A DNA stretch of 64,000 nt from a virus, in IMG/VR virus record IMGVR_UViG_3300049448_000712; one strand, given 5' to 3'. The notes under the pieces are model-generated. The model saw only the letters and a program-made list of their open reading frames with translations. It searched no databases and was not told the origin of the DNA. This document shows, in pieces, positions 2,261-55,651 of the stretch. The position numbers and the translations under genes are program-made. Each line of letters opens with the position of its first letter. The stretch's first letter is position 1.

Positions 2261-2586
2261 GCGACACGAGCGGTCCGGGGCAGCCGGAAGAGCGAAAAAA
2301 CCTCCACGACGGCAGCGATCTCTGCTTTGAGCAGAAACAGCGCGCGAAGCAGGTCGAGCACGAGCTTCACAAGCTCGCCAACCGCCTTGAGCGGGACAAG
2401 GTCGCGAACATCTTTCACCTGCAGGTCTTCGCGTTCAACTGCGACGACAAGAAGCACGACAAGCCCCACACGCTGCATTTCGACTACGTCGCGGGCGGCG
2501 GACGGCTCGACGTGCCGAACAGCCTGCAGACCACCATCAAGGCGCTCGAGCATGCGCTGGCTCAACTCAAGAAGCAGGTCCAGTAG
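2257..2586 (+). CDS. hypothetical protein
   Basis: ORF with ATGA-type overlap with the upstream gene. Confidence 0.45.
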   Translation: MSDTSGPGQPEERKNLHDGSDLCFEQKQRAKQVEHELHKLANRLERDKVANIFHLQVFAFNCDDKKHDKPHTLHFDYVAGGGRLDVPNSLQTTIKALEHALAQLKKQVQ

Positions 2587-3278
2587 TGGAGTCACGACGT
2601 TGGTTCCACACCGAGGCGCAGGCCGAGGTCGCCTCGTTGGGCGGCTACGACGTGCTGTACTCAGATCCTTGCTGGAAGTACCGCGTGCAGGGCGGTCGTG
2701 GCGCAGCTGACAAGCAGTACAAGACGATGAGCCTGGCGGAGCTCTGCCTGCTGCCGGTGGAGAAGCTCGCGTCGGAGAACAGCGTGATGTTCATGTGGGG
2801 CGTCTTCCCGATGCTGTTCGAGGCCGGCGCGCTGATGAAGGCGTGGGGCTTCGAGTACCTGAACTGCGGCTTCATCTGGGTGAAGACGAACCCCATCTCG
2901 CCGACGCCGTTCGTCGGCATGGGGCACTGGACGCGCGGGAACGCCGAGTTTTGCTTGATGGGCAAGCGCGGAAAGCCGAAGCGGGTCGACGCGGCCGTGC
3001 AGCAGATCGTCGAAGACAACCTCGTCGTCGCGCCCGTGGCCGAGCACTCGGCGAAGCCGGCCGAGGTGCGCAACCGCATCACGCGCCTGATGGGAGATGA
3101 CGTGTCGCGGGCCGAGCTCTTCGCCCGAGAGCGTGTGCCCGGCTGGGATTTATGGGGGAATGAAGCACCGCAGTCCAACGTCGTTCTTTTGCCTGAAGGA
3201 GCACAGCATGGGAAAGCAATTGGTGTTCAACAAAGCGTCGGAGAAGGCCTCGGCATCGGAGCTCGCACCGTCGGCTGA
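2586..3278 (+). CDS. MT-A70 family DNA N6-adenine methyltransferase (putative)
   Basis: YSDPCW resembles the catalytic (D/N)PP(W/Y) motif, here non-canonical DPCW. EHSAKPAEV matches the EHSRKP signature of MT-A70 enzymes. The 3' end overlaps the next gene. Confidence 0.6.
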   Translation: MESRRWFHTEAQAEVASLGGYDVLYSDPCWKYRVQGGRGAADKQYKTMSLAELCLLPVEKLASENSVMFMWGVFPMLFEAGALMKAWGFEYLNCGFIWVKTNPISPTPFVGMGHWTRGNAEFCLMGKRGKPKRVDAAVQQIVEDNLVVAPVAEHSAKPAEVRNRITRLMGDDVSRAELFARERVPGWDLWGNEAPQSNVVLLPEGAQHGKAIGVQQSVGEGLGIGARTVG

Positions 3279-4428: not shown

Positions 4429-4598
4429 GAGCCAAATCGGGAAAGGTGAAGATCTCGATGTCCCTCGAAGAGGCGATCAAACTGATGCAGTGCTTCAAAA
4501 GCTTCAATGAAGGCCGGAACGACTACACGCTGATGCAGGAAGTCGGGGCACCGCTGCTCCGAGAGCTCGAAGGGCTTCTCGCAGGGAGAAATACATGA
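4425..4598 (+). CDS. small hypothetical protein (57 aa)
   Basis: Fills the gap, and its stop overlaps the next ATG (ATGA). Confidence 0.3.
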   Translation: MRAKSGKVKISMSLEEAIKLMQCFKSFNEGRNDYTLMQEVGAPLLRELEGLLAGRNT

Positions 4599-6421
4599 AG
4601 CGTATCCAATTCGCCAAAGGGCTCTCGTTCCCCGACGACGCTGCCACGCAGACGTTCGGCTTCGTCGCGCGCAAGGGCGCCGGCAAGTCGTACGCGGCCG
4701 GCAAACTCGTCGAGGGCCTGTACGCGCACGGAGATCAGTTCGTCGTGCTCTCTCCGCTGCCCAACTGGTACGGCCTGCGCCTGGCAGCTGATGGAAAGCG
4801 CCCGGGGCTCGATGTCGTCATTCTCGGCGGCCTGCGCGGAGACATTCCCCTCGACCCCGGCGCCGGCATGCTCGTGGCCAACGCGGTGCTCGATTCAGGG
4901 CGGAGCTTCGTGCTCGACGTGAGCCAGTTCTCGCTGGGCGAGCGCAAGCGCTTCGTCGCGGCTTTCGGCGAGCAGCTCTGGCAGCGGCAGAAGGCGCTTG
5001 AGGACCCTCGGCCCATTCACATCGTGCTCGAGGAGGCGCAGCTCTTCTTGCCCCAGCAGATCTACAAGGGCGACGAGCACATGGTGGGGATCTGGAACGA
5101 GATCGTCCGCCTGGGCCGCAACTGCGGCATCGGCGTGAGCCTCATCACGCAGCGGCCCCAGAGCGTCACGAAGGAGGCCCTCACGCAGGTCGAGTGCCTC
5201 GTGGTGCTGCAGGTCAACGGCCCCCCGGAGAAGAAGGCGCTCAGGGAGTGGATCGTCGAGAAAGGCGCCGACACGAACCTTCTCGAGGAGCTGCCGTTCT
5301 TGAAGCAGGGCGTCGCGTACATCTGGAGCCCCCAATGGCTGGAGCACTTCGGCAAGCATGAGATCTTCCCGAAGTGGACGTTCGATTCTGGTGCCACGCC
5401 GAAGAGCGGCAAGGCGCGGGTGAAGGCGGAGCTCAAGCCGCTCAACCTCGACGAGCTCAAGGCGCAGATGGCGGAGACGGTGAAGAAGTTGGAAGCCAAC
5501 GACCCGGCTGCGCTGAAGAAGCGCGTGCGTGAGCTCGAGCTCGAGGTTGCGAAGAAGGGCGGAGGCGCGAGCGCCGCAGAGCTCAGCCACCTGCAGGCCG
5601 ACGTCAAACAGCAGCTGCGCGCGGCGGACATCTTCCGAGAGTCGCAGCTCGCTCGGTTTCGCCAAGACATGCAGGAGCAGTTGAACGCCCTGTCGAAGTT
5701 CCTTGCGGCGTGGATCTTCACCGAGAAGGGTTTGATGGCCGAGCTCAAGGCGGCCAGCGACGCCGCGTTACCGAACTTTATGCCCTCGAAGCTCAATGGA
5801 AGCACGTCGCGGTCAAAGACTGCCGTAGGCTCTATGGCAGTGGGCTCTCCGCGAAACGGCGACCAGCGCGAGCACCCGGTTCGTAACCGGGCGGTGCCTG
5901 TACGGGAGGTAAAAGCCGAGAGTAGCGCCTCGGCCGAGGGCTCCATCAACAAGGGTGCGCGGGCGATGCTGCGCGCGCTCGCGTCGCGCGAACCGAACGG
6001 GCTCACGAAGAGCCAGGTCGCGACGCTCGCAGGCCTTTCACCGAGCTCCGGCACGTTCAGCACGTACCTCTCGAAGCTCCGAACGCTGGGCTTCATCTAC
6101 GAGAACCCTGCGACGAGTGAAATCACCATTACTCCGACGGGCTCGGGCGCGCTCGGTGAGCGGGTGAGCCAGCCGAGCTCGACAGAGGAGCTCGTCGCGC
6201 AGTGGAAGACGAAGTTCTCCGGCAAGGTCGGCGAGATGCTGCAGGAGCTCGTCGGGGTTTTCCCGGCTTCGCGCAGCAAGGAGGAGCTGGGCGAGATCGT
6301 CGGCATCACGCCGACGAGCGGTACGTTCAGCACGTACCTGTCGAAGCTTCGCAGCAATGGACTTGTCACCGTTGACCGCAGCACGGGGCAGTTGAAGGCG
6401 AGTGAGGATTTGTTCCTGTAA
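4595..6421 (+). CDS. P-loop NTPase with C-terminal tandem winged-helix repeats (DNA-translocating/segregation or packaging-type ATPase candidate)
   Basis: Deviant Walker A FVARKGAGKSY and Walker B HIVLEEAQLF, followed by a coiled-coil region and two repeated segments, GLSPSSGTFSTYLSKLRTLGF and GITPTSGTFSTYLSKLRSNGL. Confidence 0.7.
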   Translation: MKRIQFAKGLSFPDDAATQTFGFVARKGAGKSYAAGKLVEGLYAHGDQFVVLSPLPNWYGLRLAADGKRPGLDVVILGGLRGDIPLDPGAGMLVANAVLDSGRSFVLDVSQFSLGERKRFVAAFGEQLWQRQKALEDPRPIHIVLEEAQLFLPQQIYKGDEHMVGIWNEIVRLGRNCGIGVSLITQRPQSVTKEALTQVECLVVLQVNGPPEKKALREWIVEKGADTNLLEELPFLKQGVAYIWSPQWLEHFGKHEIFPKWTFDSGATPKSGKARVKAELKPLNLDELKAQMAETVKKLEANDPAALKKRVRELELEVAKKGGGASAAELSHLQADVKQQLRAADIFRESQLARFRQDMQEQLNALSKFLAAWIFTEKGLMAELKAASDAALPNFMPSKLNGSTSRSKTAVGSMAVGSPRNGDQREHPVRNRAVPVREVKAESSASAEGSINKGARAMLRALASREPNGLTKSQVATLAGLSPSSGTFSTYLSKLRTLGFIYENPATSEITITPTGSGALGERVSQPSSTEELVAQWKTKFSGKVGEMLQELVGVFPASRSKEELGEIVGITPTSGTFSTYLSKLRSNGLVTVDRSTGQLKASEDLFL

Positions 6422-9087: not shown

Positions 9088-9290
9088 TCTGGCAGGAGCA
9101 GCAGTTGCGCGACGACAAATCGCCGCTACAACCGTGGGAGCAGAGACGTGAGCTCTTCCGAGAGATCGACATGCTCCGCGACTATCTCATGCGCATCCGT
9201 GACCAGGCTCAAAGCCATGTGGACGACAAGAACCCTGGCTGGGGTCGCTGGGCTACGACGCTACGGCTCGCCAAGGAAGCGCTCGAGTAA
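9084..9290 (+). CDS. hypothetical protein
   Basis: ORF overlapping thyX in operon style. Confidence 0.4.
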   Translation: MIWQEQQLRDDKSPLQPWEQRRELFREIDMLRDYLMRIRDQAQSHVDDKNPGWGRWATTLRLAKEALE

Positions 9291-9562
9291 TGCTCATGTA
9301 CATGCGCATCGAGGGCAACAAGCGGGAGCTCAACGCGCGCGGGCGGCGGCTCGCCGATCTCGTTTCCGGTCGCGTCTCCTTCTCGAACAAGCAGAAGCGC
9401 AACGGGCTCCACATCTCCGGCGACGGGCTCGTGATGGCAGTTGACCTGCTGCGCTCTCAACTGATGTGGACTGCAGCTGCAGCGCTCATCGACGCGTACG
9501 GCTTCAAAGAGAAAGAGTTCACCGAGGCCGAGTATGCGGCCGACTGCCTGGAGCGGAGATGA
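9290..9562 (+). CDS. hypothetical protein
   Basis: ORF in the operon. Confidence 0.4.
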   Translation: MLMYMRIEGNKRELNARGRRLADLVSGRVSFSNKQKRNGLHISGDGLVMAVDLLRSQLMWTAAAALIDAYGFKEKEFTEAEYAADCLERR

Positions 9563-9888
9563 CGGTTCCAGCGCTGAAGAAGGGTGTCATCCGTCACGTA
9601 GTGCAGTTGAGCCACGACATCACGGTCTACCAGCGAACGTGTGACTTCTGTGATGCGCTGACCCCACTGCCGACGGTGGAGCAGCTTGACGCCGCGACCA
9701 TTGCGGCGAACACGCGGGGCCTCGGAGCAATGGTTCCGAGCATCGCGGACGAGACGGGCTCCGAACAGGGGTACGCGCCGTTCGGTCGCAATTGCCTGTT
9801 CCGGCTGGTGGGGTGGGAGCTCTTCAACAAGAAATGGGCCTGCCCGGAGTGCGTCTCACGGGCGCAGAAAGCACTGGAGAAAAAATGA
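9559..9888 (+). CDS. hypothetical protein with Cys pairs (possible Zn-binding)
   Basis: CDFC...CPEC motifs; ATG 9559. Confidence 0.4.
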   Translation: MTVPALKKGVIRHVVQLSHDITVYQRTCDFCDALTPLPTVEQLDAATIAANTRGLGAMVPSIADETGSEQGYAPFGRNCLFRLVGWELFNKKWACPECVSRAQKALEKK

Positions 9889-10769
9889 TCATCGGGCTGA
9901 TGGGGCAGAAGCGCGTCGGTAAGGACACGGCCGGCGCCGTCATTGCGGCCGAGCTCGGAGGCTCCGTGATGGCTTGGGCCGATCCGATCAAGCGGTGGTG
10001 CATGCTCGCGTTGAATCTCAACGAGGAGCAGCTCTGGGGCAAAGCGAAGGAGAAGCCACTTACGAAGCCCTGGCTTAAGTCGTGGTCGAAAAAGACGGCG
10101 TGGCTCAAGCCGCGCGACATCGGGCCACTTCCGCCTTGGGCCGACTACCTCGCCGACGCCTGCTGCGTCCCGCCGCATCAGCGAGGCATCGTCGGCAGCC
10201 GTGCTTACGCGACGCTCCGGTGGTGGGTGAACGACGACATCAATCGCGAGATGTGCGTGTGGTGGGAGGGCCTTCGCGTCGAGCCCGGCCTCACCCCGCG
10301 GCGGGTGATGCAGCACTTCGGCACCGAGTTCGTTCGGCGTCGACTTGGGCCCACGTTCTGGATCGACCAGGGGCTACGCATCGCCGACACGCTGCTCAAG
10401 GGCGGCTTTCGCTACACGCCGGCCCAGGGGCTCATCGCCAACGAGAAGTCGATGATGAACGCGGCCGTCTTCACCGACGTGCGTTTCCGCAACGAGGTGC
10501 TCGCGCTGCGACGAGTTGGCGCGCTCATCTATGGCATCGAGCGCCCCATCACATACGCGCTGCACCCGGAGTCGAAGACCTCCGTCATGGTGAAGGCGGG
10601 CAAGGAGAAGATCCTCCTCCACGCCAGCGAGCAAGAGCAGCTCAGCGTGCCGCAGTTCTGGCTCGACGGGCGCTTCATCAACCGGTTCGGCTCGAAGGAA
10701 GAGTTCGAGCACACCGTGCGGTATGTGGCTCGGCATCGCATCGCGACTCGGGGACCGGTGGTCTACTGA
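9885..10769 (+). CDS. deoxynucleoside monophosphate kinase (phage dNMP kinase-like)
   Basis: N-terminal MIIGLMGQKRVGKDT matches the dNMP kinase P-loop (GxxGxGKDT). Confidence 0.6.
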   Translation: MIIGLMGQKRVGKDTAGAVIAAELGGSVMAWADPIKRWCMLALNLNEEQLWGKAKEKPLTKPWLKSWSKKTAWLKPRDIGPLPPWADYLADACCVPPHQRGIVGSRAYATLRWWVNDDINREMCVWWEGLRVEPGLTPRRVMQHFGTEFVRRRLGPTFWIDQGLRIADTLLKGGFRYTPAQGLIANEKSMMNAAVFTDVRFRNEVLALRRVGALIYGIERPITYALHPESKTSVMVKAGKEKILLHASEQEQLSVPQFWLDGRFINRFGSKEEFEHTVRYVARHRIATRGPVVY

Positions 10770-11152
10770 TGGGCACCAACTACTACCTCGTCAAGCCCGA
10801 GGAGCGCTGCGCGGCGTGCGGCACCGTGCTGGGCCACGACAACAACACGTACCTGCACATCGGTAAGAGCTCGGGCGGCTGGCACTTCTGTTTCGACGGC
10901 CGAAAGCACAAGACCGTCGAGGAGTGGCGGGCGTTCATCGACAAGTGGATCTCTGAGGGCGGGTGGATCGCCGACGAGTACCAGCGCGACTACGTCAGCG
11001 ACGATGATCCGCAGAAGACGCGCCCCGAGCAGTTCTGGGAGATGGTCGAGGCCAAGCGGAAGGCGCCGGGGTGCCAGGCGAAGTACAGCAGCCACTGGCA
11101 CAAGACGGTCTGCGTCAACGGCGTCGACTTCAATGACCATTCGTTTTCTTGA
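10769..11152 (+). CDS. hypothetical protein
   Basis: ATG overlaps the upstream TGA. Confidence 0.45.
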   Translation: MGTNYYLVKPEERCAACGTVLGHDNNTYLHIGKSSGGWHFCFDGRKHKTVEEWRAFIDKWISEGGWIADEYQRDYVSDDDPQKTRPEQFWEMVEAKRKAPGCQAKYSSHWHKTVCVNGVDFNDHSFS

Positions 11153-11187
11153 CGTGGAGCTCGCGCGTCCTAACAGAGGGGTTGTCG

Positions 11188-11304
11188 ATGAACGTTTTGT
11201 ACGGCGTGTTGTTGTTCGGAGGGCTCGTCGTTGGTGGGCTCTGCGTGGCTTGGTGGCTGCGCAGGGCGCAGCTGCGCGAGCTCGAGCGGAGGGACAATGG
11301 GTAA
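11188..11304 (+). CDS. small membrane protein (~38 aa)
   Basis: MNVLYGVLLFGGLVVGGLCVAWWL forms a single TM helix. Confidence 0.3.
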   Translation: MNVLYGVLLFGGLVVGGLCVAWWLRRAQLRELERRDNG

Positions 11305-11530
11305 GATCGTCGAGGTGAAGCGCTTCCTGCTCCGGCTCGTCGGAGCCGTGGTACTGGGCGCGCTATGCATCGGACCGGTCCCGCGGCTGTTGAATGCGCG
11401 GGACTCTTTTCTGAACGCCATCGGGCTGTTCATCGTCGTCACGGCGTTTCTGTTTCTGGCGACTGTCGGTTTCGAGGAATTTCGGAAGTGGTACTTCAAG
11501 AAGGACAAAGAGGGAGGAAACAAACAATGA
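11297..11530 (+). CDS. small membrane protein
   Basis: Two hydrophobic segments. Confidence 0.4.
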   Translation: MGKIVEVKRFLLRLVGAVVLGALCIGPVPRLLNARDSFLNAIGLFIVVTAFLFLATVGFEEFRKWYFKKDKEGGNKQ

Positions 11531-12540
11531 AGACGTTCCTGGCGGTACTGGTGTTGGCGAGCTCGGCGTGCACCTGCGGCAAGGTGGACCCAGGTCACGT
11601 GGGCGTCGTGGTGCCGCTGAGCGGCGATGACAAGGGGAAGCTCGAGACGACGAGCAACGGCTGGTACTTCTACTCGTTCAACACGAACGTGTACGAGTTC
11701 CCGGTCTACAACCAGCAGCACAACTGGACCGCATCGCTCGCCGAGGGCAAGCACGGAGTCGACGAGCGGCTGTACTTCGGCGACAAGAACGGTCTGCGGC
11801 TGGGCGCCGACATCGGCGTGCAGTTCCACGTGCCGGCCGACAAGGTGACGCTGCTGTTCAAGACCTACCGCCAGGACCTCGACACCATCCGCGACTCGGT
11901 GCTGAAGATGAGCGTGCGCAACGCGCTGAGCATCACGGCGCAGAACTACACCGCCGAGGAGATCTTCGGCGATAAGCGCGGCGAGTTCTTCGCGAAGGCG
12001 CTTGATCACGTGAAGGAGGAGATGTCGCCGAACGGCATGGAGGTGACGAACCTCTACTTGAACGGCGAGCTCGAGCTCCCTGAGCAGATCAAGGCGACCA
12101 TCCAGGCGAAGCTCCAGGCCACGATGATCGCCCAGCAGAAAGAGAACGAGAAGCGAGCTGTAGAAGCCGAGGCCGCGAAGACTGTCGCTGCAGCGAAGGG
12201 CGTCGCCGAGGCCCAGGTGGCGACCGCCGAGGGTCAGGCCAAGACGGACATCGCCAAGGCCAACGGCGAAGCTGCAGCGTTGGTCGCCGCTGCCAAGGGC
12301 CGCGCTGACGCGCGTGTGCTCGAAGCGACGGCGGAGGCGGCGGCGAACCAGAAGATTGCGGCGAGCCTGACCGGGCCGATCCTCGACTTGAAGAAGCTCG
12401 AGATCGCGGCCGGCGTGCAGAAGGCCTACGCCGCGAAGTGGACGGGCGGAGTTCCGACCACCGTGCTCCCGTCGCAGGCGAACGGGTTTCTGATGGACAT
12501 GCGCGGCATGGACTTGAAGACCGCGCAGGCGTCAAAGTGA
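11527..12540 (+). CDS. SPFH/band-7 (prohibitin/HflK-like) domain lipoprotein
   Basis: Signal peptide MKTFLAVLVLASSAC with a lipobox Cys. The body is band-7-like, followed by an Ala/Glu-rich coiled coil. Confidence 0.65.
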   Translation: MKTFLAVLVLASSACTCGKVDPGHVGVVVPLSGDDKGKLETTSNGWYFYSFNTNVYEFPVYNQQHNWTASLAEGKHGVDERLYFGDKNGLRLGADIGVQFHVPADKVTLLFKTYRQDLDTIRDSVLKMSVRNALSITAQNYTAEEIFGDKRGEFFAKALDHVKEEMSPNGMEVTNLYLNGELELPEQIKATIQAKLQATMIAQQKENEKRAVEAEAAKTVAAAKGVAEAQVATAEGQAKTDIAKANGEAAALVAAAKGRADARVLEATAEAAANQKIAASLTGPILDLKKLEIAAGVQKAYAAKWTGGVPTTVLPSQANGFLMDMRGMDLKTAQASK

Positions 12541-14653: not shown

Positions 14654-15483
14654 GCGATACGACCGAGCTGTACTTGAGCCTGCTCAAGGAAGCGCTGATG
14701 GGCACGATCTACCGGGACCCACCCGTAGACCCGTGGAACGGCATCGTGAAGAACGACAAGGGCGAGGTGGTTAAGTGGGGCCGCGCGCCTGGGGTGCTGT
14801 CCATCGAAGCCGGGCCGTACAACGAGACGATGCGAGTCAAGGGTCTCGACTGGCCCGCCACTGCGCACACGATGATCGGACGACAGAGGCTCGGCGAGCT
14901 GGAGCGCGCGTGCATGGAGGTTCTGCGCGACGGCGTACCGGGCGACTTCGTGGAGACCGGTGTGTGGCGTGGTGGCGCGTGCATCTTCATGGCGGGGCTG
15001 CTGCGCGCGATGCAGTCACCTGACGACGTCCTACGCCGCGTCTTCGTATGTGACTCGTTCGAGGGCCTGCCTCCGCCGAACGTGCAGAAGTACCCGTACG
15101 ACAAGAACGACATCCACTACATGGTTGCGCCGCTCTTGGCTGTGAGCGTGGATCAGGTGCAGGACAATTTCAGGCGGTACGGCCTGCTCGACGAGCGCAT
15201 TGTTTTCGTCAAGGGCTGGTTCAAAGACACGCTGCCCGATCTCGACACGAACCACATTGCGCTGCTTCGGCTAGACGGCGACATGTACGAGAGCACGTGG
15301 GACGCGTTGACCGCGCTGTACTCGAGGGTCTCTCCAGGCGGATGCGTGGTCGTCGATGACTACAACGCAGTGAGAGGATGTCAGAAAGCGGTGCATGCTT
15401 TTCTGGACCAGATCGGCCTGAGTCCTTCCGTTCTTGAAGTGTTCGACAACGGCGGTGCCCATTGGAGAAAGAGCGCAACATGA
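14650..15483 (+). CDS. TylF/MycF-family (macrocin-type) O-methyltransferase
   Basis: ETGVWRGGACIFMAGLL...CDSFEGLP...GWFKDTLP...LLRLDGDMYESTWDAL...VSPGGCVVVDDY matches the TylF family core. GTG start overlaps the upstream TGA. Confidence 0.8.
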   Translation: MSDTTELYLSLLKEALMGTIYRDPPVDPWNGIVKNDKGEVVKWGRAPGVLSIEAGPYNETMRVKGLDWPATAHTMIGRQRLGELERACMEVLRDGVPGDFVETGVWRGGACIFMAGLLRAMQSPDDVLRRVFVCDSFEGLPPPNVQKYPYDKNDIHYMVAPLLAVSVDQVQDNFRRYGLLDERIVFVKGWFKDTLPDLDTNHIALLRLDGDMYESTWDALTALYSRVSPGGCVVVDDYNAVRGCQKAVHAFLDQIGLSPSVLEVFDNGGAHWRKSAT

Positions 15484-16835
15484 TCGAAGCATCGAAGCCG
15501 AACGAACCGTTGGTCGACATCGTGATGCTGGTGCACGACCAAGCGAGCTGGGCCGACCTGGCGATCCGCGCCGTCGAGCACCACACGAAGAACCGCTACC
15601 GGCTGATCATCGTCGACATGGCGAGTCAGGAGCAGAAGACGAAGAATCTGCTCATCACGGCGCAGAGCAACGGGCACACCGTCGTGTGGCTCAACGAGAA
15701 CCGCTCCTTCTCGAACGGCGTCAACGCGGGTGTGCGCGCTGGCAGCGCGAAGTACATCGTGCTCCTCAACGATGACGCGCTCGTGACCGAGGGCTGGGAC
15801 ACGGCGATGCTGCAGGACTGCAGCGAGAAGGGCGTGGGGCTCGTCGGAGCTCGCAGCAACTACGCCTCCGGCGCGCAGGGCGACCCGAGCTTCGTCGGCG
15901 AGCCGCCGTTCCTCGTCTTCGTCTGCGTGGGCCTGCGGCGCGAGGTCTGGAACCACGTCGGGCCGATGGACGAGGAGACCTTCGATGGCTTCAGCTCCGA
16001 AGACCTCGACTACTCCTGGCGGGTGAAGAAGGCCGACCTGCGGCTTAAGGTGAGCAACGCGTACGTGCTCCACGCCGGCAGCCGCACCATCGCGTCGAAG
16101 CACACGACGCCCGAGGCCCAGGAGCGCAACAACCGGAAGTACAACGAGCGGCTGGTGAAGAAATGGGGCGAGGAGTGGTGCCAGCAGAAGTTGAAGCTGA
16201 AGCCGAAGATCCTCGTCTGCTCGTTCCACGCGGAGGAGCACACCCGCGTCGCGTTCCTCGCGAACCTCGTGATGCTCCGTAAGACGGGCGGGCTGCCGTT
16301 CGACTACCACCAGATGACGCGCATGCACATTCAGGTGGCGCGGCAGCTCGTGTGCGATCTCGCGATCGACAACGACTACGACGCGCTGTTCATGCTGGAC
16401 GACGACGGCACGTTCCCGCCCGACACCCTCGCGCGGCTCTACCGGCACGACAAGGAATGCGTCACGGCGCTCGCCTACCAGCGCTTCCCGCCGTACCAGC
16501 CCTGCATCTTCGACACGAACGAGGAGGGCATGGGGCGCCCGGTGGAGGGCGTCGAGAGCACGGGCCTGCGCGAGATCGGGGCCTCGGGCCTGCACTGCGC
16601 GATGATCCGCGTTCCGCTCATCAAGCGTATGCGCGAGGCGAAGATCTCGCACTTCTTCGGCGGCTTCGAGAACAAGTTCGGCGAGGACATCGCCTTCAGT
16701 GCCAACGTGAAGAAGGTCAACGGGAAGATCTACTGCGACACCGACTTCATCGCCGGCCACATCGGCAGCCCCATCGTGGTGAACGACGCGTTCCGCAAAG
16801 ACTGGATCGCGCGCGGCCGGCCGGGGCTCGGATGA
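15480..16835 (+). CDS. two-domain family-2 glycosyltransferase
   Basis: N-terminal GT-A domain (DIVMLVHDQ...IIVDMAS...VLLNDDALVTEGW) and a second GT-A-like domain (FMLDDDGTFPPDTL). Confidence 0.75.
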   Translation: MIEASKPNEPLVDIVMLVHDQASWADLAIRAVEHHTKNRYRLIIVDMASQEQKTKNLLITAQSNGHTVVWLNENRSFSNGVNAGVRAGSAKYIVLLNDDALVTEGWDTAMLQDCSEKGVGLVGARSNYASGAQGDPSFVGEPPFLVFVCVGLRREVWNHVGPMDEETFDGFSSEDLDYSWRVKKADLRLKVSNAYVLHAGSRTIASKHTTPEAQERNNRKYNERLVKKWGEEWCQQKLKLKPKILVCSFHAEEHTRVAFLANLVMLRKTGGLPFDYHQMTRMHIQVARQLVCDLAIDNDYDALFMLDDDGTFPPDTLARLYRHDKECVTALAYQRFPPYQPCIFDTNEEGMGRPVEGVESTGLREIGASGLHCAMIRVPLIKRMREAKISHFFGGFENKFGEDIAFSANVKKVNGKIYCDTDFIAGHIGSPIVVNDAFRKDWIARGRPGLG

Positions 16836-17407
16836 CCACCGTCACGCACCACGACGCCGCCTTCTTCAAGGAGCTGCCCGAAGGCGTGTCGGCCGGCGAA
16901 TGGAGCTACGGCAACCTCCGGGCGCTTCGTCAAGCTGGACCGTGGAAGCGCACCGACATGCGTGTCGGCAAGTTCTGCTCATTGGGCATGGGCTTCTGCG
17001 CGCTGCTGGGCAGCGAGCACAACACCGATTGGGTGTCGACGTACCCGTTCGCTATTGCCGGCCTGAGCGAGCACATCGAGGGACACCCGAAGACGTTCGG
17101 CGACATCGAGATCGGCAACGACGTGTGGGTCGGCATGAACGTCACCGTGTTCTCCGGCACGCGCGTCGGCGATGGAGCTGTCATCGCAGCTGGCTCGTAC
17201 CTGCGCGGCGATGTGCCCCCCTACTCCATCTACGGCGGCAACCCGGCCCGGCTGCTCTCGTTCAGGTTCCGGCCTGAGGTGATCCAGCGCCTGCAGCAGA
17301 TCGCCTGGTGGAACTGGCCCCTCGAGCGCATCAAGAAAGCGGTGCCGCTGCTCAGCCAGAAGAAGGTGGAGCTCTTCATCGAAGCGGTTGAGCGAGGTGA
17401 GCTTTGA
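16832..17407 (+). CDS. hexapeptide-repeat acetyltransferase, Vat/CatB (xenobiotic acetyltransferase) type
   Basis: GKFCSLGMGFCALLGSEHNTDWVSTYPF and a left-handed beta-helix repeat segment. Confidence 0.75.
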   Translation: MTTVTHHDAAFFKELPEGVSAGEWSYGNLRALRQAGPWKRTDMRVGKFCSLGMGFCALLGSEHNTDWVSTYPFAIAGLSEHIEGHPKTFGDIEIGNDVWVGMNVTVFSGTRVGDGAVIAAGSYLRGDVPPYSIYGGNPARLLSFRFRPEVIQRLQQIAWWNWPLERIKKAVPLLSQKKVELFIEAVERGEL

Positions 17408-17628
17408 GCCCGGAAGACTTCGAGGAGCTCCAGGCGATCGTCGCCGAAGAGCTCGGCATCCCCTTTGAGGATTTGCGTACGACGACCGAGCTCGTCGGCG
17501 ACTCCCTGACGCTCACGGAGATCATTGTGCGCGTCGAGACGGAGTTCAGCATCCTCATCTCGGACGAAGAGTCGTCGAAGGTGAAGACGTTCATGGATCT
17601 GCACTCGCTGGTGGAGAGCAAGCGATGA
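17404..17628 (+). CDS. acyl/peptidyl carrier protein-like
   Basis: LVGDSLTLTEIIVRVETEF resembles the ACP DSL phosphopantetheine site in a four-helix context. TTG start overlaps the upstream stop. Confidence 0.5.
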   Translation: MSPEDFEELQAIVAEELGIPFEDLRTTTELVGDSLTLTEIIVRVETEFSILISDEESSKVKTFMDLHSLVESKR

Positions 17629-18398: not shown

Positions 18399-18620
18399 AT
18401 GGCGCGGAAGAAGCATCGTCGTTCTCGTCACGCTCGTTGCAAGTACGGCAAGCTGAAGCACCCGCGCGGTCGGCGGATCTGTCGCGTGCGTCCGTCGCGT
18501 CGGCGTCGTCCGCTGACGAGCTCGCGTCGCGAAGCGATCAAGTACGAGCGCGACCTCGAGCGCGAGATGATCGCCCGCCACAAGGCGTCGCTCGGCCGGC
18601 TGCGTCGGCGCCGTCGCTAA
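18399..18620 (+). CDS. small highly basic protein, copy 1 of the CKYGKLKHPRGRRIC family
   Basis: RBS aaggag upstream. The protein is about 40% Arg/Lys. Confidence 0.45.
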   Translation: MARKKHRRSRHARCKYGKLKHPRGRRICRVRPSRRRRPLTSSRREAIKYERDLEREMIARHKASLGRLRRRRR

Positions 18621-18644: not shown

Positions 18645-18824
18645 ATGGCTCGTCGGCGTTGCAAGTACGGGAAGCTGAAGCACCCGCGCGGTCGTCGCAT
18701 CTGCAGGCTCCGCCCCACGCGGCGGAAGCGCTGGAGCGAGAGCCGGCGCTACAAGAAGGACCTGCAGCGCGAGTTCGATCGCCGTGAGAACGCGGCGATG
18801 GGTCGGCACCGGAAGAGGCGGTAG
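18645..18824 (+). CDS. small highly basic protein, copy 2 (tandem paralog)
   Basis: RBS ggagaccaccaacATG. Shares the motif RCKYGKLKHPRGRRICR with copy 1. Confidence 0.45.
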   Translation: MARRRCKYGKLKHPRGRRICRLRPTRRKRWSESRRYKKDLQREFDRRENAAMGRHRKRR

Positions 18825-18827: not shown

Positions 18828-19568
18828 GTGGCCTTCTACGGAAACCGCGCGCTGCGCGGCAGCCTGGGCGCCTTCGGAGCGTTCGCCGGCGGAGGTCGCC
18901 CCATCTTCGGGCCCTTCGCTTTCGCAGAGTCGTGGAGCTCGGACGACTTCGAGAGCGCCACCCAGTTCACCAACTGGGTGAAGCCGTTCCTCGATCAGGT
19001 CGCACGCACGGACCTCACGTTCTCGCCGCTGAGCGCTTTCACCAAGGCTCGAGCGGAGGCGAACTACAACCTCTGGGCGAAGGCGGCGCTCAACGGAGAC
19101 CCCCAGGCGCAGGCGTACAAGGACAGCATCGACTCGCAGATGACTTCGCTCATCCATCAAGCCGACTCGCTCTCCCTGTCCGGCGCGAACGGCCACCGCA
19201 GCGAGGGCACGGAGGTCGCGCGGTACGACGCGTTCAACTCCATCATCGCCCTTGCCTCGCAGCTCGCTTCGTCTTCTCCGTCGCCCGTGGCGCCGAAAGC
19301 GAACGTGGATCTCACCGGCCGGGTGTTGGTGGGCAGCGACACGAGCTCGGGCGGCACCGCCGCGAGCAAGGCGCAGGCTGCGGCGACAGGTGGCGACATC
19401 GTCACCAACGGCTCCCTGCAGCAAGGGAACCCCTTGCCCTCGAGCGGCCCGCCGTGGGCGCTCATCATCGGCCTGGGCAGCGTGGCCCTCGTCGGGGGAG
19501 TGATGCTCCTGCGGCGGCACAAGGCCGCGTCCGTGAGCGGGTACCGACGTCGAAGGAGCCACCGATGA
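18828..19568 (+). CDS. membrane protein with C-terminal GPPW-TM-GYRRRxRR tail
   Basis: C-terminus ...GPPWALIIGLGSVALVGGVMLLRRHKAASVSGYRRRRSHR; GTG start. Confidence 0.5.
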   Translation: MAFYGNRALRGSLGAFGAFAGGGRPIFGPFAFAESWSSDDFESATQFTNWVKPFLDQVARTDLTFSPLSAFTKARAEANYNLWAKAALNGDPQAQAYKDSIDSQMTSLIHQADSLSLSGANGHRSEGTEVARYDAFNSIIALASQLASSSPSPVAPKANVDLTGRVLVGSDTSSGGTAASKAQAAATGGDIVTNGSLQQGNPLPSSGPPWALIIGLGSVALVGGVMLLRRHKAASVSGYRRRRSHR

Positions 19569-19918
19569 GACGCCTGGGGCGGCACTACTTCGGCGAGGGA
19601 GTTGCGCCCAGCGACGCGGCTGTCGCTGACGCGGGCCCGGCGTCCGGGGACTACTCGGACCCGTACGCCTGGAACCCGAACTGGAACCAGCCGACGCCGA
19701 CGACGGGCGCGACCGTCAGGACGCCGGCTGGCATGGTGCCGCAGCTGCTGGCGGACCCGAGCCAGGTCGACATCAACCCCGACGGCACGCCGACGTACCT
19801 CGCTGCTCCAGGCCTGCCGAGCTGGGTGCTGCCGGTGGCGATCGGCGCCGGGGCCTTCCTGCTGCTGGGCGGCGGGGCTCTCATTTGGGGCGTGAGTCGT
19901 CGGAAGCGGAGGCGCTGA
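19564..19918 (+). CDS. membrane protein with C-terminal TM plus poly-Arg tail
   Basis: C-terminus ...PGLPSWVLPVAIGAGAFLLLGGGALIWGVSRRKRRR. Confidence 0.5.
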
Positions 19919-20253
19919 TGGCGCTCTACAAGTTGGACCGGATGGGGCTCGTCGCGGCCGGCGCGAGCACGGTGCTGTTCAGCAAGTCACCGATGCTCAG
20001 GGTGAACGTGCCTTCGATCAGCCCTGCCGCGCCGCTGTCCGCCCCTGTCAACACGCCGGGGCCGGTCGACAGCGCTGCAGTCACCGCCTCGGGGGCAGCG
20101 AGCGGCGACCCTGGCGCGATGTCCGATGGTCCTCCCTGGGGGCTGATCGTCGGCCTGGGGCTCGCTGGCGTGGCGGCCATCGGCGGCGTGGTGTATTGGC
20201 GCCGTCGGAAGAAGAGCTCGACAGCCGGCTACCGGCGCCGAGCGCGTCGGTGA
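19918..20253 (+). CDS. membrane protein with C-terminal GPPW-TM-GYRRRxRR tail
   Basis: C-terminus ...GPPWGLIVGLGLAGVAAIGGVVYWRRRKKSSTAGYRRRARR. Confidence 0.5.
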   Translation: MALYKLDRMGLVAAGASTVLFSKSPMLRVNVPSISPAAPLSAPVNTPGPVDSAAVTASGAASGDPGAMSDGPPWGLIVGLGLAGVAAIGGVVYWRRRKKSSTAGYRRRARR

Positions 20254-20492
20254 GCTCCGAGATCGACGAGGAGCTGCGGCTGCGCATCGAGGCGGCCGAG
20301 CTCCGGCTCTCCGCCGCCGAGGCGCGGCAGGCTCGCATCGAGCGCATGCTGCTGGACCACGAGGGCGAGCACCGAACCACGAACAAGCTCCTCACCGCGC
20401 TCTCAGGGCACGTGGAGTCGCTCAACGGCCGAGTTGCGTCGCTGGTCGAGGCTGTGCTGCAGATCGCTGCTCCAAAAAAGCCGCAGCCCTGA
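20250..20492 (+). CDS. coiled-coil hypothetical protein
   Basis: High GC3. GTG overlaps the upstream TGA. It converges on and overlaps the 3' end of the gene at 20403..20783. Confidence 0.35.
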   Translation: MSSEIDEELRLRIEAAELRLSAAEARQARIERMLLDHEGEHRTTNKLLTALSGHVESLNGRVASLVEAVLQIAAPKKPQP

Positions 20493-36398: not shown

Positions 36399-37049
36399 AT
36401 GAGTTTCACCCTCGCGCCCATCTACCTCGACGACGCGCGCGAGCTCTGCGTGCGCTACCACGGGTACGCCTCGGCTGGCGGAGTCGCGGTCTACGCGTTC
36501 GGAGTTCACGAGGGCGGCCGGCTAGTCGCCGCGTACGCCTGGCAGCCCCCGCCACCAGGTGCAGCCTCCTCGGTCTGCCCTGAGGCGCCGTACGGAGTGC
36601 TCGCGCTGTCGCGCATGGTGGCGGTGCCGAAGGCGGAGCGGGCTCTCAAGCACGTGAGCAAGCCGCTCAAGTACCAGATGAAGCGGCTGATCGATCGCAC
36701 CCGCTGGCCCGTGCTGGTGACGTACAGCGACGAGGGCGAGGGGCACAACGGGTTCGTCTACCAGTGCAGCGGCTGGGAGAAGACGAACCGCGCCGAGGTG
36801 AAGGTCTTCGAGAAGGACGGCAAGCGCGCCTCGGCGTACTCCAACGGTGGCTTCGGGAAGCGCGAGCTGGACGCGGCGGGCAAGACTTGGGTACAGCGGT
36901 GGGAGAACTGGGTCTGCCCAAGGGGTGAGGCGAAGAAGTGGATGATGGAGGGCGGCTGGGAGCGCGTGGCGATCGAGGGGAAGGTGTGGCGCTCGGGCAA
37001 CCCGGCTCACACGCTCCGACGCAGGCCGAAGCAGATGACGTTGCTGTGA
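36399..37049 (+). CDS. hypothetical protein
   Basis: ORF. Confidence 0.45.
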   Translation: MSFTLAPIYLDDARELCVRYHGYASAGGVAVYAFGVHEGGRLVAAYAWQPPPPGAASSVCPEAPYGVLALSRMVAVPKAERALKHVSKPLKYQMKRLIDRTRWPVLVTYSDEGEGHNGFVYQCSGWEKTNRAEVKVFEKDGKRASAYSNGGFGKRELDAAGKTWVQRWENWVCPRGEAKKWMMEGGWERVAIEGKVWRSGNPAHTLRRRPKQMTLL

Positions 37050-37067: not shown

Positions 37068-37328
37068 GTGACGATTACGCATACTGATTTGGAAGACGCG
37101 GCGCTTCTGCTCCGAAACGAGATCAAAGACGTCGATGCCAGTCTGGAGCAGATCCTCGAGAAGATGCCCAGCGAGCGCACGCTCGTCGCTGCGTTGGCAC
37201 TCAACGGGCTACTGAGCGACATGAAGTTCGAGTCGGCTCCGACGGAGGCTGCGGACACGGCCGTCAAATACGCCGACGCGCTCCTGCGCCGGCTCGCGAA
37301 GCAACACCCGATGGAGGGCGCACCTTGA
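37068..37328 (+). CDS. hypothetical protein
   Basis: GTG start; RBS gagggaggaaaaac upstream. Confidence 0.4.
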   Translation: MTITHTDLEDAALLLRNEIKDVDASLEQILEKMPSERTLVAALALNGLLSDMKFESAPTEAADTAVKYADALLRRLAKQHPMEGAP

Positions 37329-37804
37329 AGCTCGAGCGCACGTACGAAGCAGAGGCAGCGCACCAACTCTCGGCCGGCGTCCCCGACGGCCACCCGTGCA
37401 AGCGGCTCCACGGGCACCGCTACGTCTTCACGGTGGGCATCGCGGGCGACATCGATCCCGCGACGGGGATGATTCTCGAGTACGCCGAGATCGACGCGGC
37501 GGTGCTCGATACGCTCGACTACGTCGACCACCGGTTCACCAACAGGCTCGGAGAGAACGTTCGCGTCGAGGGCAGCGCGCTCATATACGAGCCCATAGAA
37601 GGCAAGATGCTCATGGCCTTCGAGCAGGCCTCCAAGGTCCGTGAGAACAGCACCGTGGAGAACCTGGGCGTGTGGTTCGTGGCAGAGCTCAAGGCCCGCT
37701 TCAAGCGCCTGCACGCGGTCGGCAAGCGGGTGCCGCAGGTGACCTCGGTGAGCATCCAAGAAGACTCGCGCAGCGTGTTCGAGGTCTGGGTCGGCGAGCA
37801 TTGA
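37325..37804 (+). CDS. queD: 6-carboxy-5,6,7,8-tetrahydropterin synthase QueD (6-pyruvoyl-tetrahydropterin synthase family)
   Basis: CKRLHGH (Cx3HGH zinc/catalytic motif) plus a downstream Glu/Asp/His region, in a ~160-aa protein. Confidence 0.75.
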   Translation: MKLERTYEAEAAHQLSAGVPDGHPCKRLHGHRYVFTVGIAGDIDPATGMILEYAEIDAAVLDTLDYVDHRFTNRLGENVRVEGSALIYEPIEGKMLMAFEQASKVRENSTVENLGVWFVAELKARFKRLHAVGKRVPQVTSVSIQEDSRSVFEVWVGEH

Positions 37805-42949: not shown

Positions 42950-43210
42950 CTACCACTTCGCGTAGAGGGCGTTGTGGACCTTGGTGTAGTTGAGGCCGTG
43001 ATGCGAGGCCTCGCGCAACACCGCTTCGAGATCGGCGATTCGAGCTCGGAGACGCGCGTTCTCCGCCTCAAGGGGAGATGGCGTAATGGCGGCGACGGGC
43101 GCATCAACGGAGCCCTGCTCATCCGAGCTCGGCGGAGGCGGAGGAATGATCACCGAGGGCGGAGCCGCGCGATCATCCGGCTTCGGCTTCTCACTTTTCA
43201 GTTTGCCCAT
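42950..43210 (-). CDS. hypothetical protein
   Basis: Internal start MGKLKSEKPKPDD; Pro-rich and coiled. Confidence 0.3.
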   Translation of the reverse strand: MGKLKSEKPKPDDRAAPPSVIIPPPPPSSDEQGSVDAPVAAITPSPLEAENARLRARIADLEAVLREASHHGLNYTKVHNALYAKW

Positions 43211-45033: not shown

Positions 45034-45060
45034 GTCGCAGTCTCCTGTTAGGCTCCCAGA

Positions 45061-54327: not shown

Positions 54328-54340
54328 TGTGCTTCTCCTT

Positions 54341-55649: not shown

Positions 55650-55651
55650 GG

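Follow-up and report, generated by a model that had tools for sequence, protein, structure and literature searches.

Reverse (type III) signal-anchor proteins, among them the Pf3 coat protein and the N-tail of ProW, adopt an N-out/C-in orientation under the positive-inside rule. Basic C-termini are likewise familiar from phage membrane proteins: holins carry basic C-terminal cytoplasmic domains and the inovirus major coat protein ends in a basic C-terminus, yet to our knowledge neither possesses a conserved GY-polyArg motif. The known C-terminal sorting systems act on substrates that are Sec-exported (PMC11980579). One established C-terminal sorting protease, the myxosortase MrtX, is a member of the CPBP family, whose prokaryotic representatives are largely unexplored (PMC11980579), and SpdC illustrates that CPBP proteins can also work non-catalytically, as scaffolds (bioRxiv 10.1101/2020.05.21.109470).

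The viral DNA analyzed here, a 64,000-nucleotide stretch from IMG/VR record IMGVR_UViG_3300049448_000712 (hereafter ‘the window’), had been noted for three consecutive open reading frames at 18828–20253 said to share a G(P/L)PxW motif, a Gly/Ala-rich transmembrane (TM) helix and an (S/T)AGYRRRxRR ending. All three reading frames are present, with the C-terminal sequences as quoted, and each has a PxW motif ahead of a Gly-rich TM helix that leads into a polybasic tail; the GY-polyArg ending, however, is found in P1 and P3 but not in P2. P1 (18828–19568, plus strand, 246 aa) consists of a conserved helical N-terminal domain, a disordered linker and the C-terminal module (~19446–19565), which runs GPPW – ALIIGLGSVALVGGVMLL – RRHKAASVSGYRRRRSHR and reads SGY in place of the proposed (S/T)AGY. 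P2 (19565–19918, plus strand, 117 aa) has an acidic, Pro-rich N-part, followed by its module (~19811–19915) of a G-L-P-x-W motif (GLPSW), a TM helix and the basic run RRKRRR (within SRRKRRR), with neither (S/T)AGY nor GY. P3 (19918–20253, plus strand, 111 aa) terminates in GPPW – GLIVGLGLAGVAAIGGVVYW – RRRKKSSTAGYRRRARR (module at ~20128–20250), and an 80-aa coiled-coil protein (20250–20492, plus strand) is encoded by the final gene of the array. P1, P2 and P3 are predicted to be translationally coupled: the ATG of P2 overlaps the P1 stop codon (ATGA), with an AGGAG lying within the P1 tail codons; the P3 start sits on the P2 stop (TGATG); and the coiled-coil gene begins with a GTG on the P3 stop (GTGA).

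The three reading frames look like real genes. Third-position GC amounts to 0.84–0.88 in P1 and in the reading frame containing P3 (P2 was not scored on its own), and products identical to P1, P3 and two further proteins described below, P4 and P5, were recovered from independent assemblies, including an identical called gene for P3 in Logan SRR26077546. In L001, the counterparts of P3 and the coiled-coil protein are genes 201–536 and 533–775. Three orthologs of P1 (40–55% identity) all retain the TM helix and AGYRRRxRR, and have TPGW, GTNW or DNTML at the position of GPPW. Direct relatives of P1 were not found in IMG/VR or in GTDB genomes, and INPHARED returned neither a DNA nor a protein match. 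An AF2 model of P1 is helical over residues 25–150 (pLDDT 76–85) with a disordered linker, its confidence being limited to the N-domain; a comparison of this model, of moderate quality, with the PDB gave no significant match. Upstream of P1 lies a gene for a small basic protein of 73 aa (18399–18620, plus strand), which contains the motif CKYGKLKHPRGRRIC and ends GRLRRRRR; its 59-aa paralog (18645–18824, plus strand) has the same Cys motif and ends GRHRKRR. Homologs of the 73-aa protein in relatives come in two types, one with an AGYRRRSRR tail and no TM helix (L002:10753–10935), the other with a C-terminal TM helix (L002:12163–12393; L113).

Further members had been noted within 53923–61470, and five were confirmed there, on the minus strand. 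P4 (53923–54327, 134 aa) has an acidic, disordered N-part followed by GLPLW, a TM helix and RSMKKSRSTAGYRRRSRR. A 99-aa member (54341–54640) starts with MSFRSF and ends GPPLW – LVVGGAVAAVLVIRAVR directly before the stop codon, the tail being minimal, and a 177-aa member (55116–55649) combines the N-terminus MPTMLFPDPRFRSPTAEGGFGAFG with a C-terminal TM helix and the tail SRVFRSAKKRVSGRR. P5 (60926–61303, 125 aa) has a helical, Ala/Gln-rich N-part, a TM helix and KPPAAKKMSGYHRRNRRARR, without a PxW, and the 56-aa C-tail-anchored member next to it (61300–61470) ends in LLGGLAYSVLRR, its stop overlapping the P5 start by 4 nt. Two window proteins add to these five: a 160-aa protein (54637–55119, minus strand) with a TM helix in mid-protein and the GY-basic end RRLEGYKRKAQR (EGYKRKAQR), and a 115-aa member (62452–62799, plus strand) that starts with MQKTYGAYG and closes with TSW, a TM helix and a Lys before the stop. 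The L040 homolog of the 160-aa protein carries a repeated EFEPESRLEGH motif. Across the 117 predicted proteins of the window, GY[RHK]R[RK] occurs five times, always within the last 14 residues; as within-protein shuffles gave a mean of 0.006 occurrences and none of 2000 reached five, a chance origin of the GY-basic ends is excluded.

An exhaustive search with a profile of the tail (E ≤ 1e-3) retrieved 114 protein clusters out of 1.84 billion representatives; with few exceptions, these proteins span 50–285 aa and match at the extreme C-terminus. P3 (P0062) was the best match, and P4 (P0065) and P5 (P0066) were likewise retrieved. GY falls inside the last 24 residues in 88 of the 112 family members. 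The module is laid out as a PxW or NTMLY motif, a Gly-rich helix of ~20 residues, a Lys/Arg/Ser spacer of ~6–10 residues and a hallmark, [SA][VM][AS]GYRRR[RS][RS]R, that ends 6–9 residues past the Tyr; the tail logo reads S/A, V/M, A/S, G, Y, R, R, R. Ahead of the helix, 52 of the 112 members have P.{0,2}W and 24 have an NTMLY-type motif; the pre-TM motif is loose, and GPPW is the trait of a subfamily only. At their N-termini, the GY-tail proteins have M-[SRAI]-[FVI]-Y-[GFS] in common. The same tail is also found on soluble basic proteins that have no TM helix (L002:10753–10935, L061:3100–3363). Each genome encodes five to ten members, and the carriers are one clade of uncultivated phage-like elements with contigs of ~56–86 kb. 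Two proteins ending AGYRRRRRR (L065 and L073) were rejected as members, being true PEP-CTERM proteins with a PEP motif, no spacer and a different context.

The statement in the initial annotation that the motif matches none known still holds, in that no curated model describes the (S/A)(V/M)(A/S)GYRRRxRR ending, and a literature search for the tail motif turned up nothing relevant. A word-indexed search of 5.8 billion proteins with the tail HMM gave no match at E ≤ 0.01, the profile being too short for a database of this size. At the DNA level, a codon-restricted AGYRRRxRR-stop pattern had five matches in IMG/VR, none genuine, and at least 120 in metagenomes, six of which were genuine among the matches listed. 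A stricter codon-restricted pattern produced nine matches, none genuine, in 185,579 species genomes; for the pattern scanned, there is therefore no sign of a host sorting pathway.

Such a motif, TM helix and basic cluster had called to mind the exosortase, archaeosortase and myxosortase sorting signals. The likeness in layout is borne out, as the proteins end in a TM helix plus a basic cluster and several carriers occur per genome, but membership in the sortase, exosortase or myxosortase class is not: a signal peptide (Sec or Tat) is absent from all 89 GY-tail proteins, no conserved signature stands just before the helix—VAGYRRR is conserved after it—and the tail occurs on soluble proteins, too. 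Curated sorting-signal models applied to the 112 members yielded no PEP-, MYXO- or GlyGly-CTERM among the families listed, and weak, sporadic matches to the LPXTG_anchor model, of the TM-plus-basic type, in seven. P3 alone reaches the LPXTG_anchor score (19.7 bits, cutoff 15.9; model positions 10–34), and P3 contains no LPXTG.

We lean, with caution, toward reading the shared C-terminus as a membrane-anchoring module, that is, a reverse signal-anchor with a cytoplasmic handle, borne by small proteins that make up a mosaic family within one phage-like clade. TM helices and topology were called from hydropathy and the positive-inside rule. With a hydrophobic segment defined as a 12-residue window of Kyte-Doolittle ≥2.0, none of the 89 GY-tail proteins has one within the first 35 aa (median 0.91), and every one of them has such a segment at the C-terminus. 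The N-parts have a median net charge of −3 and the tails one of +10 (tail range, +6 to +14). The only Pfam domains among the 112 members are PG_binding_1, PG_binding_3 and DUF4214, and PG_binding_1 proteins with a PxW-TM-basic end adjoin the P1 orthologs in L002, L003, L141, L142 and L146. The lack of signal peptides, the strongly positive tails and the peptidoglycan-binding nature of the recognized N-domains thus argue for an N-out/C-in reverse signal-anchor; membrane insertion, this topology and recognition of the handle are what we infer from sequence. The Gly-rich helix would act as the reverse (type III) signal-anchor, and the polyarginine tail, kept in the cytoplasm, would push whatever N-terminal domain precedes it to the outer face of the inner membrane, whether this domain binds peptidoglycan, forms a helical bundle or an Ala/Gln coiled coil, or is a Pro-rich linker. 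In this view, the module is a portable cassette on diverse small proteins. It is possible that the target membrane is viral instead of the host’s.

Export of N-domains of 100–230 residues without a signal peptide would be unusual, however, and a purely topogenic role leaves the strict VAGY motif, and its presence on soluble basic proteins, unexplained. Among paralogs, the tail codons for Ala, Gly, Tyr and Arg vary synonymously; in L002, for example, three tails encode VAGYRRRSRR with differing codons. Because of this synonymous variation, and because the tail recurs on soluble basic proteins, it is under selection at the protein level. VAGY-RRR is, on this reading, more than a charge cluster, a peptide kept by selection, and is probably a cytoplasmic handle for another element-encoded component or for an anionic surface (membrane or DNA).

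A further gene encodes a candidate partner or processing enzyme. The initial annotation had proposed checking for a co-occurring CPBP, exosortase or rhombosortase gene, and a CPBP gene is indeed present, both at 43191–43610 (minus strand; 139 aa as a reading frame, 136 aa as P0005) and in every long related contig examined. In the window, this minimal CPBP (Rce1-like) glutamic protease homolog is encoded on the minus strand, in the array that includes P4 and P5. Its homologs fall into 57 clusters, with contigs reaching 86 kb, and display the family motifs (EExxxR; FxxxH; HxxxN/D) as EExxxR, FAxxH and HxxHN; R38, F57, A58, H61, H106, H109 and N110 are invariant among the 57, and E33/E34 are retained in at least 90%. 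Against Pfam PF02517, the window protein reaches 21.3 bits (gathering cutoff 22.4; E 3.4e-4), many of its homologs have a precomputed PF02517 match, and the fold matches SpdC and Rce1. None of its 19-residue windows attains a Kyte-Doolittle value of 1.6. In five relatives, the CPBP gene lies beside, or within ~2 kb of, an endolysin gene; these nearby endolysins are TM-anchored and of three types (Glucosaminidase, Peptidase_M15_4 and VanY), with a TM-anchored Glucosaminidase gene adjoining the CPBP homolog in L141, L143 and L145.

It is conceivable, albeit unlikely, that the module serves as a genuine signal for sorting or maturation, processed by this putative protease of the element itself, which would either cut the cytoplasmic tail at VAGY/RRR in an Rce1-like manner or clip the Gly-rich anchor and release the periplasmic domains, and which might free a membrane-tethered endolysin. 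Besides the conserved motifs, the fold and the proximity to anchored endolysins, the resemblance that we see between the Gly/Pro-rich helices and typical intramembrane-protease substrates is in line with such processing. CPBP and GY tails occur together in the window, L003, L141, L142, L146 and the 80,257-base contig holding L002 (P0026, P0004); the respective genes form an unbroken same-strand array in L003, L142 and L146, and share a strand in L141 and the window. As all these elements belong to one clade, though, this co-occurrence is inseparable from, and may simply mirror, shared ancestry, and no GY tail is encoded within 10 kb of the CPBP gene in L140, L143 or L147. The scaffold precedent of SpdC, the missing signal peptides and a signature on the side of the helix opposite to that in all known sorting signals likewise speak against processing. 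We are slightly more doubtful of a fuller version, in which the VAGY-polyArg tail and the Gly-rich helix would together be the recognition unit of the virus-encoded, putative ~130-aa CPBP protease, for the timed clipping or de-tailing of membrane-tethered periplasmic proteins, including the anchored endolysin.

Improbable, too, is that the Arg-rich tails bind nucleic acid, which the initial annotation had offered as an alternative for packaged DNA in an internal-membrane virion, and hold the genome, replicating or packaged, at a membrane, be it an internal or enveloping one of the virion or in the manner of the inovirus coat protein with its basic C-terminus; the small basic Cys proteins would then be DNA-condensing partners. 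The tail charge would suit this role, as would the recurrence of the tail on very basic, TM-less small proteins whose genes neighbor those of the anchored ones, and the presence of many small membrane proteins and an SPFH protein. Also in its favor, neither the 64 kb nor related loci showed a recognizable HK97-type capsid, portal or terminase gene, and no virion hallmark gene of another type was recognized: Pfam and PHROGs searches with ~50 large reading frames of the window and its relatives identified no capsid, portal or tail genes, the exceptions being a weak tail-fiber match, a partial terminase-like match that is really HerA-like, and a weak major-head-protein match (L143). Evidence for a double jelly-roll capsid or a packaging ATPase is absent, however, electrostatic DNA binding would not need the invariant GY and the small residues preceding it, and the peptidoglycan-binding N-domains better fit a role at the host envelope. 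A HerA/FtsK-like ATPase (4595–6421) was considered as a clue to a membrane virus and discarded, its homolog lying in a non-structural region of an ordinary tailed phage. The glycosyltransferase gene has a third-position GC of 0.95, which is uninformative as to the host.

We give still less credence to the tail proteins being lysis-timing or holin-like factors of an extended lysis cassette, with basic cytoplasmic C-termini as in holins. Gly-rich helices of this kind resemble those of pinholins and SAR domains. The same-strand array that holds the tail genes in L141, L142 and L146 also contains genes for peptidoglycan-binding proteins and small membrane proteins of 71–80 aa and, in L141 and L146, an endolysin gene. 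Against this stand the five to ten members per genome, the large and diverse N-domains (up to 230 aa), the single C-terminal TM helix of each protein, which is unlike known holin classes, and the location of P1–P3, 23 kb away from the candidate lysis region of the window.

Finally, the tail codons have a bearing on the genes that follow. Nine of 12 tail-coding ends inspected overlap, through their stop codon, the start of the next called gene (ATGA, GTGA or TGATG), mostly with AGGAG or GGAG within the last five codons, and CGN AGG AGC CGN CGA TGA recurs as tail codons in tandem arrays. The codons for RRSRR and the stop often contain the Shine-Dalgarno site, and the overlapping start, of the gene that follows, which helps to fix this ending. 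Coupling alone does not demand Arg runs, since 24 further overlapping gene pairs of the window have other endings. That the Arg-rich ending is a mere by-product of embedding AGGAG and an ATGA overlap, as the recurrent codons and overlapping starts might suggest, is highly implausible and already largely refuted: P4, P5 and the L003 ortholog of P1 keep the tail though no called gene begins at their stop, P3 lacks AGGAG/GGAG in its tail codons, the other coupled pairs lack Arg runs, AGY and Arg codons differ synonymously, and 88 clusters, more than 50% divergent in sequence, keep the motif.

What the analysis shows is the module—its existence, extent, conservation and composition, its overlap with coupling signals, and its absence from curated libraries and, for the codon-restricted pattern scanned, from cellular genomes. 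Should it work as proposed, (S/A)(V/M)(A/S)GYRRRxRR after a Gly-rich helix would represent a new, readily recognized C-terminal domain that marks more than 100 protein clusters in an unstudied clade of phage-like elements, and a signal-peptide-independent route by which such an element can bring many different domains to the outer face of the host inner membrane. The half-size CPBP next to membrane-anchored endolysins offers a directly testable model for a bacterial or viral CPBP; if it does recognize the module, the elements would encode a self-contained viral counterpart of sortase or myxosortase, or an anchor-release lysis switch. The tail also makes for a clear case of dual coding, with a peptide motif, a Shine-Dalgarno site and an overlapping start in the same 18 bases, and its profile is a sensitive metagenome marker for an otherwise unannotatable lineage.

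Compared with the tripartite sorting signals, the module shares a C-terminal motif, a helix and an Arg-rich cluster with the LPXTG/sortase, PEP-CTERM/exosortase, GlyGly-CTERM/rhombosortase and MYXO-CTERM/MrtX systems and, as in the last of these, where MrtX is a CPBP, the elements with VAGY tails also encode a CPBP-family gene. Unlike these signals, VAGY tails have no invariant Cys, VAGYRRR is predicted to be cytoplasmic and follows the helix while the pre-helix motif is loose, and the module is encoded by phage-like elements, with none found in cellular genomes by the pattern scan. Rce1 resembles the proposed processing in that it acts on membrane-proximal C-termini, and SpdC, a CPBP protein serving as scaffold for the membrane-anchored glucosaminidase SagB, finds a parallel in the homologs that adjoin a Glucosaminidase gene (L141, L143 and L145); yet the phage CPBP is half the size of either (115–169 aa) and only moderately hydrophobic, the type of endolysin beside it varies, and VAGY tails lack the prenyl-Cys of the Rce1 CAAX system. 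With holins and the inovirus coat protein, the tail proteins have in common that they are small phage-encoded membrane proteins with positive charges clustered at the C-terminus, but they differ in helix number and orientation and in the diversity of their N-terminal domains. As to the anchor itself, the Pf3 coat protein and the ProW N-tail likewise have a single helix and no cleavable signal peptide, with a strongly positive C-terminal flank and a neutral to acidic N-part. The N-domains of the VAGY-tail proteins are far longer, however, at up to ~230 aa, and their VAGYRRR is sequence-specific and conserved across more than 80 clusters.

ORF listing and translation reproduced exactly the three C-termini quoted in the initial annotation for the consecutive, coupled plus-strand genes P1 (18828-19568), P2 (19565-19918) and P3 (19918-20253). 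The description of their shared ending—a PxW-type motif, a Gly-rich transmembrane (TM) helix and a basic (S/T)AGYRRRxRR tail—was essentially right, except that P1 reads SGY and P2 has neither (S/T)AGY nor any GY, its C-terminus consisting of GLPSW, a TM helix and SRRKRRR. P1 overlaps P2 as ATGA, P2 overlaps P3 as TGATG, and the P3 stop is overlapped by the GTG start of an 80-aa gene (20250-20492). Third-position GC is 0.84–0.88 in P1 and the ORF holding P3 (window GC, 64%), and gene calls from independent assemblies include identical P1, P3, P4 and P5 products. P4 (53923-54327, minus strand, ending ...STAGYRRRSRR) and P5 (60926-61303, minus strand, ending ...MSGYHRRNRRARR) are two additional full tails returned by a mechanical six-frame scan of the whole window. 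Together with C-tail-anchored proteins bearing shorter basic ends (54341-54640, 55116-55649 and 61300-61470), they bear out the suggestion of further members in the 53923-61470 block; another such protein is encoded at 62452-62799, and the product of 54637-55119 ends in EGYKRKAQR. The 117 proteins predicted from the window contain GY[RHK]R[RK] five times, always inside the last 14 residues; within-protein shuffling yielded a mean of 0.006, with five reached in none of 2000 replicates.

Just upstream of P1-type genes lie very basic small proteins (window 18399-18620 and 18645-18824), with further members on related contigs (L002:8916-9194, 10753-10935 and 12163-12393; L113:762-1223; L003:4815-5051; L146:4832-5074). 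Several carry the motif C-K-[YWH]-G-K-L-K-x-P-x-G-R-R-I-C, the rest being Cys-rich and basic without it, and their endings vary by member between an Arg run, an AGYRRRSRR tail and a C-terminal TM helix. Neither of the two window proteins has a significant match in Pfam or NCBIfam.

Three P1 orthologs (40–55% identity) all retain the Gly-rich helix and end in AGYRRRxRR or RYGRHKRRSRR, while the pre-helix GPPW of P1 becomes TPGW, GTNW or DNTML. On the related contig L002, the run 9204-11955 comprises six genes, five of which encode a terminal TM helix followed by a basic tail. VAGYRRRSRR closes three tails of this run, one of them on the sixth gene, whose very basic, Cys-containing 60-aa product is devoid of a TM helix. 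Scanning with the codon-restricted DNA pattern AGYRRRxRR-stop recovered no genuine case in IMG/VR and at least six genuine TM-plus-tail ORFs among the 120 metagenome matches listed, where LAGYRRRR also closes another basic protein devoid of a TM helix; the stricter AGYRRRSRR-stop pattern found no genuine case in 185,579 species genomes. Two metagenome proteins (L065 and L073) are genuine PEP-CTERM proteins ending ...VTPEPATL.LLGFG.VGIVWAGYRRRRRR; with a PEP motif, no spacer and a different context, they fall outside the family. Their AGY-polyArg is chance convergence, a warning against searches by motif alone.

A 49-position profile built from seven tails was searched exhaustively against 1.84 billion cluster representatives, returning 114 proteins (E ≤ 1e-3), almost all of 50–285 aa and with the C-terminus at the end of the match. 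We analysed 112, leaving out the three longest matches (each >1,300 aa) and adding P0004. GY falls inside the last 24 residues in 88 of the 112. Among these 88, position −3 relative to GY is S (33) or A (33), −2 is V (60) or M (15) and −1 is A (65) or S (20); G and Y are each present in all 88, the three positions after Tyr are Arg in 79, 81 and 78, and usually 6–9 residues follow the Tyr. Before the helix, P.{0,2}W occurs in 52/112 and an NTMLY-type motif in 24/112. With the post-helix motif strongly kept and the pre-helix motif loose, the former is the hallmark of the family.

Tail-bearing proteins are alike at the N-terminus as well, where the motif M-[SRAI]-[FVI]-Y-[GFS] recurs and Tyr occupies position 4 in 49/112. 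Examples are MSFYG, MAFYG and MIVYG, and window carriers include P1, 54341-54640 and 62452-62799; the frequent S or I at its second residue fits an ATGA overlap imposing an A-initial codon. A second N-terminal motif, M(P)xMLFPDPR(F/D)RSPTA, is found on otherwise unlike proteins (window 55116-55649 and 58862-59575; L002:12593-12805).

Could the tail reflect nucleotide rather than peptide constraint? Typical tail codons read ...GCN GGN TAY CGN CGN AGG AGC CGN CGA TGA, in which AGGAG is a Shine-Dalgarno sequence and ATGA/GTGA provides an overlapping start for the gene that follows; such a start opens the next called gene at 9 of 12 tail-coding ends inspected. This dual coding partly accounts for the RRSRR-stop ending. 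Nevertheless, P4, P5 and the P1 ortholog of contig L003 carry the tail even though no called gene begins at their stop codon, and the P3 tail codons contain neither AGGAG nor GGAG. Ala, Gly, Tyr and Arg codons vary synonymously among paralogs of identical tail peptide, terminal Arg runs are missing from 24 other pairs of overlapping genes in the window, and the motif is kept across 88 clusters whose sequences differ by >50%. Dual coding therefore falls short of a full explanation, and selection acts on the peptide.

A hydrophobic segment is absent from the N-terminus of all 89 GY-tail proteins examined, and each has a strongly hydrophobic one at the C-terminus, with median net charges of −3 before the helix and +10 in the tail (range +6 to +14). 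The only Pfam domains across the 112 members are PG_binding_1 (two members, best E 1e-14), PG_binding_3 and DUF4214; PG_binding_1 proteins with a PxW-TM-basic end adjoin P1 orthologs in L002, L003, L141, L142 and L146, some of them containing AMAGY. Peptidoglycan-binding domains function outside the cytoplasmic membrane, and the positive-inside rule assigns the basic tail to the cytoplasm. Together with the charge asymmetry, this suggests that the module should be a reverse signal-anchor, whose polyarginine tail would remain cytoplasmic and whose N-terminal domain would be exported and tethered to the membrane, although N-domains of up to about 230 aa speak against easy export. The strict VAGY and the identical tail on soluble basic proteins show that this ending is not simply a source of charge. 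We read the VAGY-polyArg ending as a probable cytoplasmic handle, bound by a partner or by an anionic surface.

Three PG_binding_1 members (L142:5550-6038, L003:6309-6827 and L146:6605-7150) keep A-[GN]-Y after the helix, followed by a Cys-containing extension (e.g. AMAGYSDEDQCSCGPRH..., AMAGYRDCDCERR...) and the final basic run. A further one, P0111, has ANRRRR instead, then a lengthy extension that contains another run of Arg.

The initial annotation had proposed looking for a co-occurring CPBP, exosortase or rhombosortase gene. A gene of L003, encoding 124 aa, weakly matches Rce1, a member of the CPBP glutamic proteases, and the window encodes a homolog of it at 43191-43610 on the minus strand (phmmer 4e-17), which scores 21.3 bits against PF02517 (cutoff 22.4). 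Among 57 homologs of 115–169 aa, R38, F57, A58, H61, H106, H109 and N110 never vary, and at least 90% conserve E33/E34. CPBP and tail genes share one unbroken same-strand array in L003, L142 and L146, and CPBP lies on the strand of the tail genes in L141 and of P4/P5 in the window. Since no GY tail occurs within 10 kb of CPBP in L140, L143 or L147 and all elements belong to one clade, the association is at most suggestive.

In several relatives, CPBP lies a short way upstream of an endolysin gene of interchangeable type: Glucosaminidase (L141:10001-11379, L143:10001-11034 and L145:1127-2441), Peptidase_M15_4 (L146:10001-11259) or VanY, about 2 kb away (L140:10001-12648). One gene of 71–80 aa intervenes in L141, L145 and L146, and at four of the five loci—the four sequences read—the N-terminus of the endolysin is a hydrophobic anchor or signal-like segment. 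Two CPBP precedents point opposite ways: the CPBP MrtX cleaves the MYXO-CTERM sorting signal (PMC11980579), whereas the CPBP SpdC scaffolds the membrane-anchored glucosaminidase SagB non-catalytically (bioRxiv 10.1101/2020.05.21.109470). We consider a virus-encoded system for CPBP-dependent de-tailing or anchor release unlikely. CPBP is flanked by paralogous proteins of about 150–190 aa (window 42045-42602 and 44560-45138; L140:9164-9643; L147:8882-9343 and 10852-11373) with a common C-terminal motif, IAQAGA..F.Q.....GFG......F..H; a Gly-rich helix lies at the N-terminus of the 42045-42602 copy. These paralogs may represent a wall hydrolase that has escaped recognition.

The gene content of the window is that of a phage-like element, possibly temperate: it comprises a HerA-like ATPase, ThyX, a dNMP kinase, an SPFH protein, thioredoxin, a response regulator and a tyrosine integrase. 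A DNA N6/N4 methylase (42-1061), an MT-A70 methylase (2586-3278), a Mom-family protein (36399-37049) and a PTPS/QueD-type enzyme (37325-37804) suggest extensive DNA modification. No tRNA genes are present in the window, and INPHARED contains no DNA match to it. Its CPBP protein (P0005) lies on a 71,266-base JGI contig, and relatives lie on contigs of 56–86 kb with DNA polymerase A, NUDIX, HNH, RadC, thioredoxin and integrase genes. Pfam and PHROGs recognised no capsid, portal, terminase or tape-measure genes in the window, 64 kb of a 71-kb contig, and related loci (L140–L147), where weak structural matches were limited to a tail-fibre (52662-53885) and a major-head-protein (L143:3101-4204). 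The HerA-like ATPase is uninformative on virion type, because a 39%-identical homolog is encoded in a non-structural region of the genome of an ordinary tailed phage.

A family-2 glycosyltransferase gene (15462-16835), with third-position GC of 0.95, well above its neighbours, may have been recently acquired; 570 bases downstream lies a 74-aa phosphopantetheine-binding carrier protein (17404-17628). Runs of proteins with textbook signal peptides (window 46290-47810, 48956-50419, 50423-50881 and 57621-58703; L147:59-8026) are atypical for a phage late region and suggest heavy investment in envelope-targeted proteins. The window set includes one Tat-plus-lipobox lipoprotein; in L147, seven of eight consecutive genes encode a signal peptide and some products are Cys-rich.

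The initial annotation had likened the C-terminus to exosortase, archaeosortase and myxosortase sorting signals; the module resembles the anchor part of these tripartite signals and the anchor-type layout stands, but, unlike them, it lacks a signal peptide, a conserved extracytoplasmic signature and a match to curated models, the pattern scan found no genuine module tail in cellular genomes, and on these features it falls outside this class; the sorting-signal reading is only partly supported. No Pfam or NCBIfam model matched the cytoplasmic motif, and its strings were not found in a literature search. The C-terminal module is real, strongly conserved and previously undescribed, and it marks a large family within a lineage of phage-like elements that has gone unstudied. 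Closest in principle are the type III signal-anchors, to which the module adds a sequence-specific cytoplasmic motif.
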